A stretch of 64,000 bases of DNA from Dehalococcoidia bacterium. GTDB lineage: Bacteria > Chloroflexota > Dehalococcoidia > Bin125. Shown piece by piece: positions 1,258-12,012 of the stretch (position 1 is the first letter of the stretch; the number at the start of each line of letters is the position of its first letter). A program made the position numbers and the translations under genes. The stretch covers positions 121,144 to 185,143 of the forward strand of contig CBDBNA010000005.1 of NCBI GenBank assembly GCA_965207695.1, given 5' to 3'. The notes below the pieces were generated by a model. It searched no databases. It saw only the letters and a program-made list of their open reading frames with translations, and had not been told where the DNA came from.

Positions 1258-1355
1258 TGCTAGACTGCTGGCGTGGGCGCGGGAGAGTTGCTAGCTCCCC
1301 GCGGGGCTGAGCCCTCTACGCTGGGGCCTCGTGGCAGCGATTGCCCACGCCAGCG

Positions 1356-1397
1356 CCCCCGACGATACATCGAGAGCCGTCGGGGGCGCTTCGCGTC
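1356..1397. repeat. Dispersed hairpin repeat family A, copy 2 (CCCCCGACGATACATCGAGAGCCGTCGGGGGCGCTTCGCGTC), about 30 bp upstream of the uvrD start
   Basis: Direct repeat of 1216-1257 (about 93% identity), lying 140 bp downstream of it. Confidence 0.8.
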
Positions 1398-1428
1398 CGA
1401 CCCCGACCGCCGCTGCTACGCTCCCCCC

Positions 1429-3894
1429 ATGCCGACCTCGCAGCGGCCCGACCTCCCCACCCTCGACCTCGACGGCCTCAACCCCGCCCAGCGCGAGGCG
1501 GTGACCGGGCCCGCCGGCCCGCTGCTCATCCTGGCCGGACCGGGCTCGGGCAAGACGCGCGTCATTGCCCACCGCATCGCCTGGCTGGTGCGCGAAACCG
1601 GCGTGCCGCCCTGGCGCATCCTGGCCGTCACCTTCACCAACAAGGCCGCCCGCGAGATGCGCGCCCGCGTCGAGGCGCTGCTGCCCGGCGGCCCCGACGA
1701 CCTCGGCACGCGCGGCATGGGGCTGGGCACCTTCCACGCCGTCTGCGCCCGCATCCTGCGCGCCGACGGCGAGGCGGTCGGCGTGCCGCGCGGCTTCGTC
1801 ATCTACGACGACGACGACCAGATCGCCATCGTCAAGCGCGCCCTCGAAGAGCTGTCGGTCGATACCCGCTACCACCCGGCCCGCCGCGTGCTGAGCGCCA
1901 TCTCGCGCGCCAAGAACGAGGGGCTGAGCGCCGAGACGGTGAGCGCCCACGCCGGCGACTACCGCCAGGAGGTCGTGGCGCGCTGCTTCGAGCGCTACCA
2001 GGCGGCGCTGCGCGAGAACGCGGCGGTCGATTTCGACGACCTGCTGGGCCGCACGCTGGAGCTGTTTGCGACGCAGCCGCCCGTCGCCGCGCGTTACCAG
2101 GAGCGGTTCGCGCACGTCCTGGTCGACGAGTTCCAGGACACGAACATCGTGCAGTACCGGCTGGCCCGCGCCTGGGCGGCCGGCCACGGCAGCCTGACCG
2201 TAGTGGGCGACCCCGACCAGTCGATCTACTCCTGGCGCGCCGCCGACATCCGCAACATCCTGCACTTCGCGCGCGACTTCCCCGACGCCACGACCGTGCG
2301 GCTCGAGCAGAACTACCGCTCGACCAAGGCCATCTGCCGCGCCGCCGACGCCGTCATCGACAAGGCCGCCGAGCGCATCCACAAGGAGCTTTGGACCGAC
2401 AACGCCGAGGGCGACCGCCCCGTCGTCTTCGAGGCCTACACCGAGGCCGAGGAGGCCGACGAGGTGGCCCGCGAGATCGAGTCGCGCATGGCCGCCGGCG
2501 ACTGGCGCCCCGGCGACGTCGCCGTCTGCTACCGCACCAACGCCCAGTCGCGCGTCGTCGAGGAGGCCTTCCTGCGCCGGGGCATCCCCTACCGGCTGAT
2601 CGGCGGCACGCGCTTCTACGCCCGCCGCGAGATCAAGGACCTGCTCGCCCTCTGCCGGCTGACCCTCAACCCGCACGACGACGTCGCCTTCGAGCGCATG
2701 GTCAACGTGCCGGGGCGCGGCGTCGGGCAGCGCACCCGCGCCCTGCTGCTCGACTGGGCCGACCGCCGCGACGCCTCGCTCTCGCAGGCCGCGCTGGCCG
2801 CCGTCCGCGGCACTGCATCACCCGACGGGGGCGACCCCCCGAGCGTCACGGCCCGCGCCCGCGCCGCCCTGCAGTCGTTCCTGGCCGTCGTGCAGGGCGC
2901 CCGCGAGCGCGCCGCGACGGGCACCGTCGAGCAGGTCATCGACCAGTTGCTGCGCGAGACCGGCTACCAGGACTACCTCTACCGCACCTTCGACGACGGC
3001 GAGGACCGCTGGAACAACGTGCAGGAGTTGCGCACCGTCGCGGCCAACTACGACGCCCTCGCCCCGGCGCCGAGCGAGGCCCTGCCCGACGCCCCCGGCG
3101 ACGAGGCCGCCGCGCCCGCCTCGGCGCTCGCCACCTTCCTGGCCGACGTCGCCCTCGTCGCCGACGTCGACAACCTCGAGGAGGGCCCGGCCGCCGTCAC
3201 GCTCATCACCCTGCACGCCGCCAAGGGCCTCGAGTTCCCCGCCGTCTTCCTCATCGGCATGGAGGAGAACATCCTGCCGCACGTGCGCTCCTTCGACGAC
3301 CCGTCGGCGCTCGAGGAGGAGCGCCGGCTCTGCTACGTGGGCATGACCCGCGCCCAGCGCTGGCTGTACTGCGGCTACGCCTTCCGCCGCGCGCTGGCCG
3401 GGCGGGCCGGGCACAACCCGCCCTCGCGCTACCTGGCCGACCTGCCGCCCGACGCGATCGACCGCCGCGGCCGCGCCGGCTCGTCGGCCCCCGGCCCGCT
3501 CAGCCCCGACGTGCGGCCGGCCCGCAACCGCTGGCTCACCTGGGACGACGCCGACTCGGCCCCGCCCGACCCGCGCGCCCGCGCCCGCCCCGCCGCCCCG
3601 CGCGCCCGTCCCGACCCCGACCGCTGGGACGGCGTCGACCCCGACCCCGACGCCCCACCCGCCCGCCGCCGCGTCCGCGAGGAGCCCGCCCCCTACGCCG
3701 CCGCGCCGCCGCCGCCCTCCCCCGCCGAGGCCCCCCTGCACCCCGGCGAGCGCGTCACGCATCGGGCCTTCGGACCCGGCGTCGTCGTGGCCGTCAAGTC
3801 CTCCGGCCGCGCCGACACCGAGATCACCGTCGCCTTCGACGGGGCGGGGATCAAGAAGCTGCTGCTGTCGCTCGCGCCGCTGGAGCGGGGGTAG
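1429..3894 (+). CDS. uvrD: ATP-dependent DNA helicase UvrD/PcrA (821 aa)
   Basis: Walker A GPGSGKT; helicase motifs (TFTNKAAREM, VLVDEFQDTN, VVGDPDQSIYSWRAA, QNYRST); C-terminal UvrD_C / Tudor-like tail. Start chosen at MPTSQRPDLPTLDLDGLNPAQREAV; the ORF-track N-terminal extension is upstream run-through. Confidence 0.9.
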   Translation: MPTSQRPDLPTLDLDGLNPAQREAVTGPAGPLLILAGPGSGKTRVIAHRIAWLVRETGVPPWRILAVTFTNKAAREMRARVEALLPGGPDDLGTRGMGLGTFHAVCARILRADGEAVGVPRGFVIYDDDDQIAIVKRALEELSVDTRYHPARRVLSAISRAKNEGLSAETVSAHAGDYRQEVVARCFERYQAALRENAAVDFDDLLGRTLELFATQPPVAARYQERFAHVLVDEFQDTNIVQYRLARAWAAGHGSLTVVGDPDQSIYSWRAADIRNILHFARDFPDATTVRLEQNYRSTKAICRAADAVIDKAAERIHKELWTDNAEGDRPVVFEAYTEAEEADEVAREIESRMAAGDWRPGDVAVCYRTNAQSRVVEEAFLRRGIPYRLIGGTRFYARREIKDLLALCRLTLNPHDDVAFERMVNVPGRGVGQRTRALLLDWADRRDASLSQAALAAVRGTASPDGGDPPSVTARARAALQSFLAVVQGARERAATGTVEQVIDQLLRETGYQDYLYRTFDDGEDRWNNVQELRTVAANYDALAPAPSEALPDAPGDEAAAPASALATFLADVALVADVDNLEEGPAAVTLITLHAAKGLEFPAVFLIGMEENILPHVRSFDDPSALEEERRLCYVGMTRAQRWLYCGYAFRRALAGRAGHNPPSRYLADLPPDAIDRRGRAGSSAPGPLSPDVRPARNRWLTWDDADSAPPDPRARARPAAPRARPDPDRWDGVDPDPDAPPARRRVREEPAPYAAAPPPPSPAEAPLHPGERVTHRAFGPGVVVAVKSSGRADTEITVAFDGAGIKKLLLSLAPLERG

Positions 3895-4034
3895 GGGCGG
3901 GGCAGCGCCCCTGTGTAAGATACGAAACATCCGTTCTTAGCGTTTCGCGCGCTTATGGTACCTCGGCGGTTGCTAGGTCGTTGCTCGTTGATACCGTGAC
4001 TCTCCGTCTTCTGAACGTGAAGGAGAATTACCCG

Positions 4035-5780
4035 ATGGACCTCACGGAAGCCGCAGCGCTGCTCGACAAGATTGCCGAAGAGCAATGCCACCCATTCAAG
4101 ATCGCGTCCGAGTTCAGGAAGCGGGCCGCGATCCCCGCGGATGCGGTAGTCCGGACCGCAGCTGCCGCTCTGCAGTACGACCTCACTGAGTCGGGCGAAT
4201 CGAGACGCGAGACATACGGGCCATTCGCTCCGATGCTCCAGACCGAAGACTTCGTGACGCCGCCGTATACGTGGGACGTACAAGACGACGTGCTGAATGC
4301 GTGGCAGCAACTTGCGGAGCTCGTCCATTCGCCGGTGGTCGCCGCCCGCCTCCAGGACTTGCTCTGGGTCACGAGCTTCGGCGAAGCCCCACACGAACAC
4401 GCGCGTGCCGCGATCAACAACTACATCTCGGCGTCAGCATTGCCCCACTGCGATGGGCTGGAGGCATTCGACTGCCTCGACCGGGCGTTCGATCTGTCCC
4501 GCCAACTCAATGTCCCCGGGGTGGGGGAACGTATCAGGCAGCGAGCTGTCGAAGAGCTTGTAGCCGAGTACAACCGCCTTGAGGCCGACGCACGTCCGGG
4601 CGTGGTGATCCGCCTCCTCACACTGCTGGTCAGCCTGCCCGCGGCCGATCAGCCGGATGATCTGCGCGGACTCCTGGACCAGGCTCACGTGCTCTTCGCG
4701 GGCAACTACCCAGACAATCGAATCGCACTGTTCCAGTTGCAACAGCGGCTCGCCCGCGGCGATCAAGCGGAGATTGAGCGCCTTCAGCGGGAAAGCGTCG
4801 AACTCTGGATCCAATGGGCGGCGCAGCAAGAGAGCGGCTGGCTTCGATTGGATGCCTTGGGCAAGGCCCTGGAGATCGCGAACAGCACAAGAACCACCGC
4901 GGACATGCGTGAGCCCATCCGGCTCATGATGCAGCAGACCGATCCGAGCGACCTCTACACCGAGTCGGCGGAGGTATCGTTCGAACTCCCGGCGGACGAG
5001 GTCGAGCGACTCATCGCTCTGATAGTCGGTGACGACAGCGTCGGTCGTGCCCTCGACCGCCTCGGCGCTTGGTGGCCTCCAACAGGCGACCTCCAGGAAA
5101 CTTCAGCTGCTGTTGATGAGCAGATGGAGAAGCTTGTGTTCTGGCGTCTCATCCCTCAGGTCATCACCGATCCCACGGGACATCCGCTTCGCGTCGTCGA
5201 CACTGACGAGGCAAAGCGTGCACTGGCAATGGTGCAGCACGGTGCATTTGCTGCGCGAGTCCATGCAGTGATCACAAGAAGAGCGCTCCTGGCGATTCAG
5301 GAAGCGTACGCCCCAGGCCAGCGAGAGCTTCATGAGGCCTTTCAGACCGCTCTAATCAACTCGCAACAGGCCGAGGTGTTTGCCAGGACGCTCCAACACT
5401 ACTGGGCCGGCCGGTTTGACGAGGCCATACACATCGCGCTGCCCCGCATCGAAGCTGTCCTTCGGCAAGCTCTGCTGATGGCAGGCGGCATCGCCCGCAA
5501 GCAACCGCATGGGGGGCGCTCTGGGGGGGTAAAGGCCCTCGGAGAAGTCCTTCAGGCACTGTCCCGGTGGATGCCCGAGGAGATGCGTTTCCCTTTCCGT
5601 GTCCTCCTGACCGATGACCGTGGCCTCAACTTACGAAATCGGTACATGCATGGTTTGCCTCCGCAGGACGAAAGCCAGCAAGCAACCGAGCAAGACGCCT
5701 CCCTCGTAATCCACATCATCACCCATCTTCGGCTGCTTAGTCTCCAACCATCAACGGAACCACCAGCGGACGACGACTAG
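4035..5780 (+). CDS. Hypothetical 581-aa all-alpha protein with a C-terminal HEPN-like domain (motif LRNRYMHG = R-x4-H-G); candidate RNase-type defense or abortive-infection protein
   Basis: Strong SD AAGGAG 9 bp upstream of the ATG. About 60% GC, clearly below the flanking genes. C-terminal ...IHIALPRIEAVLRQALLMAGG...LRNRYMHG fits the HEPN Rx4-6H signature. No similarity to housekeeping families that I recognise. Confidence 0.55.
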   Translation: MDLTEAAALLDKIAEEQCHPFKIASEFRKRAAIPADAVVRTAAAALQYDLTESGESRRETYGPFAPMLQTEDFVTPPYTWDVQDDVLNAWQQLAELVHSPVVAARLQDLLWVTSFGEAPHEHARAAINNYISASALPHCDGLEAFDCLDRAFDLSRQLNVPGVGERIRQRAVEELVAEYNRLEADARPGVVIRLLTLLVSLPAADQPDDLRGLLDQAHVLFAGNYPDNRIALFQLQQRLARGDQAEIERLQRESVELWIQWAAQQESGWLRLDALGKALEIANSTRTTADMREPIRLMMQQTDPSDLYTESAEVSFELPADEVERLIALIVGDDSVGRALDRLGAWWPPTGDLQETSAAVDEQMEKLVFWRLIPQVITDPTGHPLRVVDTDEAKRALAMVQHGAFAARVHAVITRRALLAIQEAYAPGQRELHEAFQTALINSQQAEVFARTLQHYWAGRFDEAIHIALPRIEAVLRQALLMAGGIARKQPHGGRSGGVKALGEVLQALSRWMPEEMRFPFRVLLTDDRGLNLRNRYMHGLPPQDESQQATEQDASLVIHIITHLRLLSLQPSTEPPADDD

Positions 5781-5785
5781 CCCCA

Positions 5786-5807
5786 CCCCCAACAGCACGG
5801 GGGCTTT
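5786..5807 (+). terminator. Possible intrinsic terminator (CCCCCaacagcacGGGGG followed by CTTT)
   Basis: A 5-bp GC stem immediately after the stop of the 4035-5780 gene, followed by a short T tract. Weak. Confidence 0.3.
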
Positions 5808-5874
5808 GAGTTGGCGCCGGTCCAGCGATTGTCCCCGCCTCGTATACTGCGCCGATGACAGCAAGGGGTGACCG

Positions 5875-6267
5875 ATGAGCAAGTGGAAGTGGGCCGCTGG
5901 GGCCATCGGCGTCATTGCGTTGGGCGCGTTCGCGGCGGCGTGGGCGCTCACCGAGGCAGACGTACTGCGCTGGGGCGCCACCGCCGCCCTGCACGACCGC
6001 ATTGAGGCCTTAGAGCGTCGGGCCGAGGCCGCGCCGAAGACGCCTGACTGGACCGTGCTCTCGCGCGAGGGGCCGGTGTTCCGCGTCGTCGGCGGCGCCC
6101 CCATCGTCGAAGCGTGCATCACCTACACGTCGCCGTCGGGCGTGCAAGAGCGCTGCCGCCTCATGGCGACGCGCGGCCCGGGCGGCGAAGCGGAGATGAT
6201 AGAAGACGTCGGCCCGTGCTGGGACCTGGCCCGCATCGGCGCCCCCCTGCCCGATTGCTGGCGCTGA
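5875..6267 (+). CDS. Hypothetical small secreted or membrane-anchored protein (130 aa)
   Basis: N-terminal hydrophobic segment WAAGAIGVIALGAFAAAWAL. RBS-like AAGGGG upstream. Lies inside the lower-GC island. Confidence 0.4.
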   Translation: MSKWKWAAGAIGVIALGAFAAAWALTEADVLRWGATAALHDRIEALERRAEAAPKTPDWTVLSREGPVFRVVGGAPIVEACITYTSPSGVQERCRLMATRGPGGEAEMIEDVGPCWDLARIGAPLPDCWR

Positions 6268-6273
6268 CCACAC

Positions 6274-6339
6274 CTACCCGGACATCCGCGGCGACGTGTG
6301 CATCTCCCTGCCCGCCCGCGGGCCCGCCGGCGACGGCAG
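6274..6339. repeat. 66-bp direct repeat B1 (CTACCCGGACATCCGCGGCGACGTGTGCATCTCCCTGCCCGCCCGCGGGCCCGCCGGCGACGGCAG)
   Basis: About 85% identical to 7578-7643. Together the two copies bracket the 6406-7575 gene. Confidence 0.8.
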
Positions 6340-6405
6340 TTCCGGGGACACCCGTCAGTTGGCACGCCGAGCTAGCATCGTGCGAGCATCCTTGAGCGGA
6401 TCCTG

Positions 6406-7575
6406 ATGACGAACAACCTGACCCTCTTCGACGACTTCGAGCGGACGAACACGTGCGAGAAGCCCTCAGCCCAGGAGATGGTCGATTTCATCAATGAGTC
6501 GGCTTGGCCATCGAGCGAGCGGGTCCGCGCCGTCTTCGAGCGGTGGTTCTCGCACTACCCCGACGATCGGAAGAAGAACCTACGTCGCCGCTTTCGCGAA
6601 GGTGCTCACCAGCACGACTCCGCGGCCTTCGAGCTCATGCTGCACGAACTCCTGCGCCGCCTGGATTTCGCGGTGGTCGTGGAGCCGGAACTCCGAGAGG
6701 GTCACGGAAGGCCGGACTTCGCGATCACGGACCGGCGTGGGCGCGCTTCGTACATCGAGGCGACCGTTGCGGAGTATACGGGTATGCGCCTCGGAGATCC
6801 GCTTCAGAACGAAGTCTTCGATACGATCAATGAGATACGTCCGCCGGACGGGATCGCATTGAGGGCAGACCCTCGCGGCGCGTTGGAGCAGGCCCCATCC
6901 CGCACGAGAGTCCAGGACACCGTCCGGGAGTGGCTGGAGGGGATCGATCCGGCACGCATCATCGACGGGGCGCCGGTCGAGAACCGGCGCCTCAAGTTCC
7001 GATGTGGGAAATGGAGGTTGAAGCTGACTGCGATTCCCTGGAAACGGGGCAACGCTCACCAGTTGATCCAGGCCGGGCCAATGCCTTTCAGCACCGACAT
7101 CGACGACGTCGCTTACTTGAAGAGCAAGCTACTTACCAAGGCACGCAAGTATCGCAACTTGGACAAGCCGTTGATCGTCGCCCTGAGCATCCCCGGCTCG
7201 CCCGTGGATGCCGACGGCCAGCTAGCGACGCTCTTCGGCGAGCGGGATGACTGCCACTCAATCGGGGGCGCTCACACGGTCGTGACGGGCACGGCTCGGA
7301 CTCCGGACTCAGCCTGGCTCGACAACGACGGGCCGCGTTCCCGGGGGCTCCATGGCGTCACGTTCTTTGGTGACTGGATGCAGTCCGTCGCCGGCTCTCA
7401 CGCCTGCACGTACATCAATCCCTTCATCGACGCCAAGATTCCCGACGAACTGCTTCAGTTAGGCAGTGCCCGGGTCGAAGACGGAACAGTCGTCTATGAG
7501 GAAGGCCCCCGCCTCGGGGAAATCCTCCGACTCCCCAAGGACTGGCCCGGCCCTCCGGGGATGCCGTCGGACTAG
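6406..7575 (+). CDS. Hypothetical 389-aa protein, possibly with a PD-(D/E)xK-like nuclease core; flanked by 66-bp direct repeats
   Basis: Lower GC in its 5' half. Segment AFELMLHELLRRLDFAVVVEPELREGHGRPDFAITD...ASYIEATV resembles an E...PD...ExK-type core with an atypical last position (T instead of K). No family that I recognise. Confidence 0.5.
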   Translation: MTNNLTLFDDFERTNTCEKPSAQEMVDFINESAWPSSERVRAVFERWFSHYPDDRKKNLRRRFREGAHQHDSAAFELMLHELLRRLDFAVVVEPELREGHGRPDFAITDRRGRASYIEATVAEYTGMRLGDPLQNEVFDTINEIRPPDGIALRADPRGALEQAPSRTRVQDTVREWLEGIDPARIIDGAPVENRRLKFRCGKWRLKLTAIPWKRGNAHQLIQAGPMPFSTDIDDVAYLKSKLLTKARKYRNLDKPLIVALSIPGSPVDADGQLATLFGERDDCHSIGGAHTVVTGTARTPDSAWLDNDGPRSRGLHGVTFFGDWMQSVAGSHACTYINPFIDAKIPDELLQLGSARVEDGTVVYEEGPRLGEILRLPKDWPGPPGMPSD

Positions 7576-7577
7576 CC

Positions 7578-7666
7578 CTACCCGAACATCCGCGGCGCCG
7601 TGTGCATCTCCCCGCCCGTCCACGGGTCGGCCAGCGACGGCAGCGCCGGGGGCGCTTCGCGTCCCC
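7578..7666. repeat. Direct repeat B2 (66 bp) fused to a partial family-A tail (CGCCGGGGGCGCTTCGCGTCCCCC)
   Basis: 7578-7643 matches 6274-6339. 7643-7666 matches the 3' part of the family-A repeat, so the A and B families appear to be related. Confidence 0.75.
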
Positions 7667-7704
7667 CACCCCCGCCCCTGCTACCCTCCACCCGAGGAGG
7701 CCCC

Positions 7705-8160
7705 ATGCCCACGTTCTCCGTCAACGACGACGCCCCCGACTGGCAACGCGACCACACCCGCCGCTACCTCGACTCGAACGGCGCCGACGGGCACGACTGG
7801 ATCGCGCCCAACGGCGACGGCCCCTACCCCACCCTGCTGCTGCTGACCGTCGGCCGGCGCAGCGGCGCCGAGCGCACGCTGCCCCTGATCTACGGCGATT
7901 ACGACGGCGCCTACGTGATCATCGCCTCGAAGGGCGGCGCGCCGGCCCACCCCTCCTGGTACGTCAACCTGGCCGCCAACCCCGAGGTCTGGGTGCAGGT
8001 GCGCGACCGCCGCACCGCCGCCACGGCCCGCACCGCCTCGGGCACCGAGCGCGCCGCCCTCTGGAAGCAGCTCGCCACCATCTACCCGCCCTACGACGAG
8101 TACCAGGAGCGCGCCAACCCGCGCGAGATCCCGGTCGTCGTGCTCGACCCGCACGACTAG
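7705..8160 (+). CDS. Deazaflavin (F420)-dependent nitroreductase/quinone reductase family protein (Ddn-like, PF04075)
   Basis: PTLLLLTVGRRSGAERTLPLIYGDYDGAYVIIASKGGAPAHPSWYVNLAANPEVWVQV is the characteristic family signature. RBS GAGGAGG upstream. Confidence 0.8.
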   Translation: MPTFSVNDDAPDWQRDHTRRYLDSNGADGHDWIAPNGDGPYPTLLLLTVGRRSGAERTLPLIYGDYDGAYVIIASKGGAPAHPSWYVNLAANPEVWVQVRDRRTAATARTASGTERAALWKQLATIYPPYDEYQERANPREIPVVVLDPHD

Positions 8161-8359
8161 GGCCTCAGGCGCCTCCCCATCCATCTCGATGGAGCGGAGG
8201 CCGTCGGGTGAAGTCGGCCGCCGGCCGCGCGTCCGGGGTGCTATACTGAGCGAGCCGGAGCCGGGAGGCGTCAACTCCCGCCGCCGTGCATCCAGGGGTC
8301 GCCATTTGGCCCCATGGTGCGTATAGGCGGCACTCCGCACACGGAGCGGCCCCGACCCG

Positions 8360-8401
8360 CCCCCGACGATACACCGTGGACCGTCGGGGGCGCTTCGCGT
8401 C
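8360..8401. repeat. Dispersed hairpin repeat family A, copy 3 (CCCCCGACGATACACCGTGGACCGTCGGGGGCGCTTCGCGTC)
   Basis: Matches 1216-1257 and 1356-1397. Sits 16 bp upstream of the 8418 start codon. Confidence 0.8.
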
Positions 8402-8417
8402 CGCGCCCGGAGTTCCC

Positions 8418-8828
8418 ATGCCCTCCTCCGTCATCCCCTCGTTCCGCTACGCCGACGCGCCCCGCATGATCGACTTCCTCTGCGACGCCTTCGGCTTCGA
8501 GCGCAACCTCGTCGTGCCCGACAGCGATGGCGGCGTCGCGCACGCGCAGCTGACCCTGGGCGACGGCATGATCATGCTCGGCTCGGCCCGCGACGACGAC
8601 TTCGGCGCGCTGGTCGTGACGGCCGCCGCGGCCGGCGCGCTGACCAGCTCCCCCTACGTGATCGTGCCCGACGTCGATGCGCACTGCGCGCGGGCCCGCG
8701 CCGCCGGGGCGGAGGTCGTGATGGAGCCGGCCGACCAGGACTACGGCGGCCGCCTCTACGCCGCCCGCGACCCCGAGGGGCAGCTCTGGAACTTCGGCTC
8801 CTACGACCCCTGGGCGGCGCCGGAGTAA
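8418..8828 (+). CDS. VOC family protein (glyoxalase/bleomycin-resistance fold)
   Basis: FRYADAPRMIDFLCDAFGFERNLVVPDSDGGVAHAQLTLGDGMIMLG...VVMEPADQDYGGRLYAARDPEGQLWNF is typical of VOC / PhnB-like proteins. Confidence 0.75.
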   Translation: MPSSVIPSFRYADAPRMIDFLCDAFGFERNLVVPDSDGGVAHAQLTLGDGMIMLGSARDDDFGALVVTAAAAGALTSSPYVIVPDVDAHCARARAAGAEVVMEPADQDYGGRLYAARDPEGQLWNFGSYDPWAAPE

Positions 8829-8838
8829 CCCCCCGCCG

Positions 8839-10353
8839 TCAGCCGATCCGCACGCCCTCGGCCGGGTAGCGGTAGCGCGCCTGGCCGCGGTCGGGCACGG
8901 TCAGCGCGACCATCAGCGGGGCCAGCCGGCCCACGAACATCAGCACGATCAGGATCGCCGTGCCCGCGCCCGAGAGCGTCGCCGTCACGCCCTGCGACCA
9001 GCCCACGTTGGCCAGCCCCGACATCGCCTCGAAGACCAGCGGCAGCACGGGGCCGTCCTCGGCCAGCATCATCGCGACCACGCCGACCGTCAGCGCCACG
9101 ACGCCCAGCAGCACGACCGCGATCGCCCGCAGCACGACGGCGTGCGGGATCTCGCGGCCGAACAGCTCGGCCTGGTGCCGCCCCCGCAGCGACGACACGA
9201 CCACCGCCAGCCCCACGACGAACGTGCCCACCTTGATCCCGCTCGCCGTCGAGGTGGAGGCGCCGCCGATGAACATCAGCGGCAGCAGCACGACGGTCGT
9301 CACGTCCTGCAGGGCGCTCATGTCCACCGCCGACATGCCCGTCGTGCGGTTGACCGAGAGGAAGAAGGAGTTGACCAGCGCCTCGAGCGGGGTGCGGCCG
9401 TCGAGCACGCGGCCCGACTGCACCTCGGCGGCGAGGAAGAGCGCCATGCAGCCGACGAGCAGGCCGGCCATCATCAGCACGACCATGCGCGTGTCGAGCG
9501 ACCAGCGCCGCCAGCCGCGCCGCAGGTCGAACACGGTCACGAAGGACAGGCTGCCCAGGAACGCCGCCACGCCCATCACGATCAGCGGGTAGGGCGCGCC
9601 GATCTGCGCTTGGAAGCTCTGCCGCCCGCCCATCAGGTCGAAGCCGGCGCTGTTGAAGGCCGAGACGGCGTGGAACAGCGCCGACCAGACCGCGCCCGCC
9701 CCGCCGAACTCGATCAGGAACCAGGGCAGCAGGAGGAGGAACGTCAGGACCTCCGCCACCGCGACGTAGATCAGCACCCGCCGCAGCAGCCGGCCGATGT
9801 CCCACTCGCCCGAGCCCGTCAACTCCATGCCGAAGAGGCTGCTGCCGCGCAGCCCGAAGCGGCGCCCCAGCAGCACCAGCAGCGAGCCCGCGTAGATCGT
9901 CACGCCCAGGCCGCCGATCTGGATCAGCGCGATGATCACGGCCTCGCCGAAGCCGCTCCAGTGCTCCGCCGTGTCGACCCGCACGAGGCCGGTCACGCAG
10001 ACCGCCGAGGTCGCCGTGAACAGCGCGTCGAGCCCGTTCGTCCAGCGGCCCGACTCCGCTGCCCAGGGCAGCGACAGCAGCGCCGCGCCGATGAGGATCG
10101 CCGCCCCGAAGGCGCCCACCAGGTACCAGGGCGTGGGGCGCAGGCGGATCACGCGCCGCGGGCGCTCGAGCGCGAAGACCTCCGTCTGCACGCGCCGGCG
10201 CCGCAGGACCACGTCGCCGGGGCGCCGCACCGTGCGCGACCGTGTCGTGCGCGCCTCCCCGCCGCCTCCGCCGCCGCCCCGTCCCCGCCGCGCCGCCGCC
10301 CGCCGCCACCCGGCCCGAAGCCACGCCCGCGGTCGCACAGCCATCGCCTCCAC
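8839..10353 (-). CDS. trkH: TrkH/KtrB family potassium uptake transporter
   Basis: Multi-pass membrane protein with repeated selectivity-filter-like segments (IQIGGLG, SAFNSAGF, GASTSTASGIKVGTF). N-terminal Arg/Gly-rich extension; the true start may lie downstream. Confidence 0.85.
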   Translation of the reverse strand: MEAMAVRPRAWLRAGWRRAAARRGRGGGGGGGEARTTRSRTVRRPGDVVLRRRRVQTEVFALERPRRVIRLRPTPWYLVGAFGAAILIGAALLSLPWAAESGRWTNGLDALFTATSAVCVTGLVRVDTAEHWSGFGEAVIIALIQIGGLGVTIYAGSLLVLLGRRFGLRGSSLFGMELTGSGEWDIGRLLRRVLIYVAVAEVLTFLLLLPWFLIEFGGAGAVWSALFHAVSAFNSAGFDLMGGRQSFQAQIGAPYPLIVMGVAAFLGSLSFVTVFDLRRGWRRWSLDTRMVVLMMAGLLVGCMALFLAAEVQSGRVLDGRTPLEALVNSFFLSVNRTTGMSAVDMSALQDVTTVVLLPLMFIGGASTSTASGIKVGTFVVGLAVVVSSLRGRHQAELFGREIPHAVVLRAIAVVLLGVVALTVGVVAMMLAEDGPVLPLVFEAMSGLANVGWSQGVTATLSGAGTAILIVLMFVGRLAPLMVALTVPDRGQARYRYPAEGVRIG

Positions 10354-11108: not shown

Positions 11109-11139
11109 AGGCCGCTCCGGGCCTCCTTCCAGGCGCCTT

Positions 11140-11238
11140 GGGAGCCCCTTGGGAGCCCCTTCCGGACCCCTTCTGCACCCCTTCTGCACCCCTTCCGGAC
11201 CCCTTCTGCACCCCTTCTGCACCCCTTCCGGACCCCTT
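11140..11238. repeat. Perfect 11-bp tandem repeat array, 9 units (GGGAGCCCCTT x2; then [CCGGACCCCTT CTGCACCCCTT CTGCACCCCTT] x2 + CCGGACCCCTT), giving a 33-bp higher-order period
   Basis: Read directly from the sequence. Intergenic: 32 bp after the stop at 11108 and about 100 bp before the 11338 start. Confidence 0.95.
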
Positions 11239-11337: not shown

Positions 11338-12012
11338 ATGAGAGGCCCTCGTGTGTCCACTTCCATCGACGACCAACTACCCGATCCGCTGCCCGTCCGC
11401 GCCCGCAAGTGGGGCGCCGGCCCCCGCGTCCAGGAGCGCCTGCGCTCCGTCGCCGACCTCCGTCGGCGCGGCCTCGGGCGAGCCGAGATCGCCGCGAAAC
11501 TCGGCGTCTCCCCACCGACGATCTCCCGCGACCTGGCCCGCGTCGACCTGATCGAGCAGCACCAAGAGGCCGAGTTCGTGCACACGCAGCAGATCGAGTG
11601 CCTACTCTCCCTGCGCGAGCTCACGCTGGTCTGCTGGCACGTCATCTCCCGCTACCGCTACGACCCGGACCGCATCGCCGACATGGCCGCCGTCGCGAGC
11701 GTCGTCGTCGCCGCGCAGCGCGAGGCCGGGCGCATTCTCGCCGGCTCCCGAGACCCCAACGCCGGCGACTCCGACGGCGAGAATCGGGAGGACCAAGACA
11801 TAACCGAGGGAGAAACCCTCCTGATGAGCCTTCTCAACATCCAGAGACCCGATTATGGAGAGGGCGAGATCGCCGATCTGCGTCGGGCCGTCGACGCCGA
11901 TTTCTCCCGTTACCTGAAACCCTCCCGGCTCGCCGTCATCCAGCGCGGCCTGGCCCTCGTTCAACGCGACGCCCCCGACGCGCTGACGAACGCCGCCGCG
12001 CCCGACGACTGA
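11338..12012 (+). CDS. Hypothetical HTH-domain protein (sigma-70 region-4 / small-terminase-like helix-turn-helix), 224 aa
   Basis: LRRRGLGRAEIAAKLGVSPPTISRDLARV is a classic HTH. GC drops to about 52% in the 3' half. Bracketed by tandem-repeat arrays. Confidence 0.5.
   Translation: MRGPRVSTSIDDQLPDPLPVRARKWGAGPRVQERLRSVADLRRRGLGRAEIAAKLGVSPPTISRDLARVDLIEQHQEAEFVHTQQIECLLSLRELTLVCWHVISRYRYDPDRIADMAAVASVVVAAQREAGRILAGSRDPNAGDSDGENREDQDITEGETLLMSLLNIQRPDYGEGEIADLRRAVDADFSRYLKPSRLAVIQRGLALVQRDAPDALTNAAAPDD

Follow-up and report, generated by a model that had tools for sequence, protein, structure and literature searches.

The gene at positions 4035-5780 (+ strand) of the 64,000-nt stretch of Dehalococcoidia bacterium DNA analyzed here (contig CBDBNA010000005.1, positions 121,144 to 185,143; hereafter the window) encodes a protein of 581 amino acids (aa) that can be placed with high confidence in the HEPN superfamily and, within it, in the DUF4209 family. 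Judged from its sequence, the protein is likely to have catalytic ribonuclease (RNase) activity, and the fuller proposal that we favor, a single-polypeptide HEPN RNase that serves in sensor-gated abortive infection, appears moderately likely. The protein is a fairly divergent new member of a family that is catalogued and experimentally untouched. At its variable site downstream of pcrA in this high-GC Chloroflexota-like genome, the gene behaves like a cassette that is mobile and can be exchanged.

Three parts can be told apart in the protein (coordinates here and in the next paragraph refer to the + strand). The N-terminal DUF7380 domain (residues 9-159; 4059-4511) matches Pfam PF24098 with an E-value of 6.6e-11 and a score of 42.8 bits, the gathering cutoff being 27 bits. 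It is followed by an alpha-helical repeat region (residues 160-440; 4512-5354), interrupted by a beta-hairpin at about residues 375-388, which we propose to be the sensor or regulatory part, and by a C-terminal HEPN domain (residues ~441-566; 5355-5732). The DUF4209 match (PF13910) falls within the last of these: residues 472-562 align with profile positions 1-86 of 89 at 45.3 bits against a cutoff of 22.3, and the isolated domain scores 48.8 bits. An initial annotation of this DNA had named DUF4209 among the families to be compared by Pfam profile, and it is this family that matched above the gathering cutoff when the search was run. DUF4209 corresponds to the C6orf70/ERMARD HEPN family, which has a conserved Rx4-6H motif. 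The family includes catalytically active bacterial versions, fusions to TPR and members in restriction-modification (R-M) related operons; in the eukaryotic ERMARD branch the N-terminal parts are different and a transmembrane segment is present (Anantharaman et al. 2013, PMC3710099). The order DUF7380 then DUF4209 is that of hundreds of relatives of ~570 aa, in which the R-N-x3-H-G motif described below is likewise conserved; compared with that family, the present protein has no distinguishing feature. Over nearly its full length it also matches two PADLOC models of the defense candidate PDC-S39, PDLC05012 (E 4e-32; residues 35-549 align with positions 52-582 of the 615 in the model) and PDLC05011 (E 3.6e-22), neither of which comes with a curated cutoff. 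A PADLOC PDC-S56 match over the motif region is marginal, and no NCBIfam model matches the protein.

The motif stands near the C-terminus, where residues 532-540 read N-L-R-N-R-Y-M-H-G in frame (codons aac tta cga aat cgg tac atg cat ggt; 5628-5654). It has the Rx4-6H spacing of the HEPN superfamily, as R534-N535-x3-H539, with a polar N immediately after the R; catalysis is predicted to depend on R534 and H539. The initial annotation had seen the motif correctly and placed it one base too far downstream, at 5629-5655. Its interpretation of the motif as that of a HEPN RNase is supported by conservation, by the Pfam DUF4209 profile match and by the fold. The amphipathic helix that it described upstream of the motif (FDEAIHIALPRIEAVLRQALLMAGG, residues 461-485) is also there, and is helical in the AlphaFold2 (AF2) model. 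This helix includes the first HEPN helix motif, P-R-I-E-A-V-L-R (residues 470-477; 5442-5465), which was recognized by its conservation and carries the invariant pair E473/R477. Only a single HEPN domain with a single conserved motif was recognized in the protein. The possibility of another, degenerate HEPN domain in the N-terminal part was considered and, judged by the motif, rejected, since the sequence contains no further conserved Rx4-6H.

Conservation singles out the same residues. When 1.84 billion cluster representatives (50% identity level) were searched with a profile, 5017 matched at E<=1e-3 and 666 of those at E<=1e-30; most are ~570 aa long and align end to end. Across the whole protein, conservation in an alignment of 160 of these representatives is highest at E473 (99%), R477 (100%), G497 (98%), N532 (98%), R534 (98%), N535 (96%), H539 (98%) and G540 (95%), and the blocks of 20 residues richest in information are 521-540, the highest, and 461-480. 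W90, R105, L109 and A126 are the best conserved in the N-terminal domain. The N, R, N and H of the motif are invariant in a separate alignment of 34 sequences (A3), and DUF4209 was matched by all 34 of the diverse C-terminal domains tested. Closer to the protein, the public collection holds one identical sequence (P0001), all others searched being at most 60% identical. A word-indexed search gave 22 close relatives at 41-60% identity plus one at 28%, all metagenomic, the only named one being a protein of a Chloroflexota metagenome-assembled genome (MAG). The relatives in the genome collection are likewise all from Chloroflexota (Dehalococcoidia and Tepidiformaceae MAGs), and distant ones, labeled 'DUF4209 domain-containing protein', are found on plasmids of Streptomyces, Rhodococcus, Sinorhizobium and Agrobacterium. 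None was found in phage genomes or IMG/VR viral contigs, which speaks neither for nor against a role in defense.

The AF2 model of the full-length protein is of good quality, with a predicted local distance difference test (pLDDT) score of 84.5, and is helical except for the beta-hairpin already mentioned, so that the earlier description of the remainder of the protein as about 480 aa and all-alpha was essentially correct. Residues 385-581 modeled alone gave a pLDDT of 87.6 and a predicted template modeling score (pTM) of 0.82. The C-terminal domain is a compact, all-alpha, up-and-down helical bundle, as expected of the HEPN fold, and in the model the C-terminal ~125 residues adopt that fold.

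In characterized HEPN RNases (Csm6, RnlA/LsoA, HEPN-MNT, the KEN domains of Ire1 and RNase L, and Cas13) the active site is built from two Rx4-6H motifs. By analogy, one HEPN domain would supply half a catalytic site, and with a single domain and a single conserved motif the protein would therefore need to homodimerize or to assemble to a higher order for activity. The monomer or an autoinhibited state would be inactive, and the pairing of two C-terminal domains would create a metal-independent endoribonuclease. Sensing or autoinhibition is likely to be the task of the ~440-residue N-terminal helical repeat, which comprises DUF7380 and the central region; this repeat could bind a trigger derived from phage or from stress and so license the pairing. 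The paired enzyme would cut tRNA, rRNA or mRNA of the cell or the phage and thereby arrest growth. The outcome would be abortive infection, and the gene would act alone, with no conserved partner gene. Close relatives diverge most at residues ~281-320 and 361-420, segments that fall within the N-terminal repeat, the candidate sensor or autoinhibitor.

The history of the locus can be read by comparing window positions 3606-10322 with their counterpart in a closely related genome, the Chloroflexota MAG COS3_bin_15 (L003). The flanks (the pcrA tail on one side; nitroreductase-like, VOC and TrkH genes on the other) are 93-100% identical in DNA, with a synonymous divergence (dS) of 0.05-0.10. From the start codon of the DUF4209 gene onward identity is lower, 77% at first and 45-61% over the last third, while dS climbs from 0.58 (codons 1-150) to 1.86 (codons 441-581) and the ratio of nonsynonymous to synonymous divergence (dN/dS) stays at 0.24-0.33 throughout. 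The two alleles are 56% identical. This pattern points to replacement of the allele by recombination rather than rapid change in place, and positive selection in situ was rejected as the source of the 56% identity, given a dS at least 10 times that of the flanks and a dN/dS of ~0.3. On sequence comparison, then, the two genomes carry old, divergent alleles at one site, both under purifying selection. A remnant of the pcrA 3'-end is found directly upstream of a more distant homologue, P0011: ~115 nt (L001 892-1004, L002 7794-7887), 84-88% identical to window 3785-3897 and no longer ending in the stop codon. The complete pcrA gene of the P0011 genome is ~7.5 kb off, on the other strand. This remnant suggests that the cassette moved along with the pcrA tail.

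In the window the gene directly upstream is pcrA/uvrD itself (TIGR01073, E 3e-228). As a functional partner pcrA was rejected: more distant homologues adjoin unrelated genes, and pcrA is therefore better seen as a lineage-specific insertion site. The downstream ORF (open reading frame) of 130 aa, at 5875-6267 and with a hydrophobic N-terminus, was likewise rejected as a partner or antitoxin, for in locus L002 it adjoins pcrA, 7 kb away from the DUF4209 gene. The neighbors in related loci vary from one locus to the next and include acyl-CoA dehydrogenases, an M20 peptidase, ilvD, a STAND/AAA_16 ATPase with a winged helix-turn-helix (wHTH) domain, a D12 methyltransferase and an HNH protein. No neighbor gene is conserved across the 10 loci, nor was a cognate antitoxin (MNT nucleotidyltransferase, RnlB/Dmd-like) found in them, and with no partner gene conserved the family gene is a single-gene unit. 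Family genes in related loci have a GC content at third codon positions (GC3) of ~0.71, their neighbors 0.9-0.97.

A bare Rx4H is within what chance allows in this protein: shuffled versions have 1.3 copies on average and 75% of them have at least one, and the real sequence has four Rx4-6H matches. The meaning of the motif rests, therefore, on conservation, the Pfam profile match and the fold, and it is here that the idea of an unrelated helical protein that happens to contain an Rx4H fails. Only the 534-539 copy is conserved in the family, and it lies inside an above-threshold DUF4209 match and a domain with HEPN-fold matches; the fuller patterns R-N-x3-H and Rx4HG occur in 2.5% and 6% of shuffles, respectively. 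We regard a chance motif as vanishingly improbable, effectively refuted by the Pfam match, the conservation and the fold matches. The domain could still be a HEPN module that does no catalysis and instead binds a ligand or nucleotide or interacts with proteins, making the protein a regulator or scaffold. MtlR, sacsin and the substrate-binding domains of kanamycin nucleotidyltransferase-type enzymes are examples of such modules. Inactive HEPN domains, however, are said to lose the Rx4-6H motif typically (a statement ascribed to Anantharaman and colleagues in 2013), whereas here the R, N and H are 96-98% conserved and lie within the most conserved segment of the protein. This makes a non-catalytic module improbable. 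Inactive versions of the domain have been described for Swt1 (PMC3710099).

An active HEPN RNase need not be an anti-phage one. The enzyme could function in stress response or RNA turnover, or be a selfish, addiction-type toxin restrained in cis, and the HEPN evidence is equally compatible with these possibilities. A role in RNA degradation has been proposed for the eukaryotic ERMARD/C6orf70 at the endoplasmic reticulum membrane (Anantharaman et al., PMC3710099), the gene stands alone amid housekeeping genes in several loci (acyl-CoA dehydrogenase with M20 peptidase; ilvD), and a dN/dS of ~0.3 gives no sign of positive selection. On the other hand, the patchy distribution, low GC3, plasmid-borne relatives and swapped diverged alleles fit accessory conflict genes better than housekeeping ones, the matched PADLOC candidate derives from embedding in R-M, BREX and DISARM loci, and no antitoxin-like partner is conserved. 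Two of the related loci have defense-like neighbors (the STAND/AAA_16 ATPase and the D12 methyltransferase), and among the related loci an Eco57I-type R-M system is also found ~5 kb away; others have housekeeping neighbors only. On balance an RNase outside defense seems unlikely, though far from negligible.

Several points weigh against the sensor-gated abortive-infection RNase that we favor. No R-M, BREX or DISARM genes adjoin the DUF4209 gene in the window, and the defense-like signals of its neighbors there are weak, consisting of a PD-T7-5 match at E 6e-5 and a sub-threshold HicA-like match. PDC-S39 is itself listed in its source as a candidate lacking assays, and in the literature searched we found no published biochemical or phage-challenge data on DUF4209 (bacterial or ERMARD/C6orf70), DUF7380 or PDC-S39. 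Comparison of the domain model with the PDB by Foldseek gave nothing significant (the match of highest probability, at 0.66, is the HEPN protein 1o3u), and profile searches of PDB sequences with the whole family and with the C-terminal domain found no HEPN relative; as sequence profiles find no solved relative, the family appears to be one without an experimental structure. Finally, the dimerization, the trigger and the RNA target are all steps that we infer by analogy.

The link to defense comes through PDC-S39. The 145 PDC systems are candidates without assays, nominated by their embedding in BREX, DISARM and type I R-M loci (Payne et al. 2024, bioRxiv 10.1101/2024.01.29.577857). That study also includes HEC-08 (DUF3644), a different HEPN candidate, which gave protection from phage that was abolished by mutation of its motif histidine (bioRxiv 10.1101/2024.01.29.577857). 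PDC-S39 itself occurs in the literature searched solely in defense inventories, those of P. aeruginosa PAO1 and an E. coli O157:H7 strain. The present gene resembles PDC-S39 in its near full-length matches to the hidden Markov models and in being a single gene without a conserved partner, and differs from it in setting: the candidates were nominated inside BREX, DISARM or type I R-M loci, whereas this gene stands alone downstream of pcrA. It also differs from the single-protein or toxin-type HEPN RNases of known defense systems, AbiD/AbiF (Abi_2), RnlA/LsoA, PrrC/RloC, HEC-08, HEPN-MNT toxins, Csm6/Csx1 and Cas13. Leaving aside the marginal PDC-S56 match, the protein has no Pfam or PADLOC sequence match to any of these, and it is without a CARF domain, an ATPase, an MNT or antitoxin partner or a second HEPN domain. 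The DUF7380 N-terminal helical repeat is specific to the DUF7380-DUF4209 family. Nor does the gene have the adjacent antitoxin that marks toxin-antitoxin pairs of the HEPN-MNT or RnlAB type.

A more specific version of the sensor-gated RNase can be entertained tentatively, with a modest chance of being right. DUF7380-DUF4209 proteins might be stand-alone immune receptors, in which a hypervariable central segment (~281-320 and 361-420, with the beta-hairpin) recognizes a phage component and licenses HEPN pairing. The population of this Chloroflexota lineage would then maintain several deeply diverged alleles, exchanged by recombination at a single fixed site downstream of pcrA. If so, the RNase domain of human ERMARD/C6orf70 could be studied through this cassette as a tractable model in bacteria. 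The family is large, with thousands of representatives at the 50% identity level, occurs also in model bacteria according to PADLOC-based surveys, and has its nuclease domain in common with ERMARD/C6orf70, which is linked to human disease. This copy brings no new principle and nothing that a specialist would find unexpected. What it offers is a clean case of the gene on its own: the catalytic motif is clear, the model is confident, and two divergent alleles occur naturally at the one locus. With an allele-swapping locus and a data-poor family, it is reasonable to choose this gene for experiments. In terms of genome scanning, the gain is chiefly that the gene can be annotated correctly, as that of a candidate abortive-infection RNase located in a small variable island.

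The coding sequence, supported by translation, Pfam and PADLOC, runs from the ATG at 4035 to 5777 with the stop codon at 5778-5780. Close homologues open with the same MDL/MDP, and a Shine-Dalgarno-like AAGGAG, read from the sequence, lies 9 nt 5' of the ATG (4020-4025, + strand) and is kept in the sister locus L003. A GC-rich hairpin right after the stop (5786-5803, + strand) came up in a consensus scan as a weak terminator-like site and is merely suggestive, such sites being no more numerous than in shuffled sequence. With the ORFs of 130 and 389 aa, the gene makes up a variable island downstream of pcrA (3895-7655), delimited by GC content, the L003 comparison and repeats; GC is ~0.62 over 3900-7500 and 0.72-0.84 in the flanks. 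The 389-aa ORF (6406-7575) lies between direct repeats of 82 nt (6266-6347 and 7570-7651) that are 84% identical. The segment containing it is absent from L003, which indicates insertion or deletion of one gene between the repeats. Its product has no Pfam or NCBIfam match, the weak one to PADLOC PD-T7-5 (residues 36-124) being its sole match.

Upstream of pcrA, ORFs of 175 aa (63-590) and 98 aa (587-883) overlap by 4 nt and have a GC content of 0.59-0.63. The latter has the HicA_toxin match below threshold (E 0.069), and the two may be a toxin-antitoxin-like pair, in which case accessory DNA would lie on both sides of pcrA. The listed start of the pcrA/uvrD ORF (1273-3894) is a GTG at 1273, whereas the pcrA profile aligns from residue 66 onward and copies of a hairpin repeat fall in the first 130 nt of the ORF; the true start is probably the ATG at ~1429 (MPTSQRPDL...). 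In one related locus, L005, a 749-aa AAA_16/ORC-CDC6-like/nSTAND ATPase with a TrmB-type wHTH (3742-5991) is encoded 4 nt upstream of the family member and has the same low GC3 as its neighbor (0.66); this may be a further defense-like gene traveling with the L005 family member. Elsewhere, a Dehalococcoidia genome has a C-terminal family fragment alone (L008 6001-6361, 111 aa), near a D12 DNA methyltransferase gene, and a second copy as two ORFs of 403 and 231 aa (L009 5779-7748), which may be a frameshifted gene or an artifact of ORF calling. If real, these remnants would suggest that family genes decay frequently.

The hairpin repeat is a GC-rich element, CCCCCGACG-N13-CGTCGGGGGCGCTTCGCGTC, with five copies in the window, all on the + strand, upstream of + strand genes and confined to the first 8.4 kb (1080-1099, 1238-1257, 1378-1397, 7644-7663 and 8382-8401), where 0.16 would be expected by chance. 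The full copies (1214-1265, 1354-1405 and 8358-8409, + strand) fold with -32 to -41 kcal/mol and z-scores of -2.8 to -3.9. Rfam recognized no RNA family in the window, this element included. One copy, at ~8106-8405, is in a segment missing from L003, and a promoter-like box, GTGCTAcAaT, occurs twice (1113-1140 and 8238-8265). Further downstream, a tandem repeat at 11136-11238 has an 11-nt period (CCCCTTCTGCA / CCCCTTCCGGA) and ~7.5 copies; read in units of 33 nt it repeats perfectly, with 2.5 copies, and it appears to be intergenic, lying between an ORF that ends at ~11108 and one that starts at 11338.
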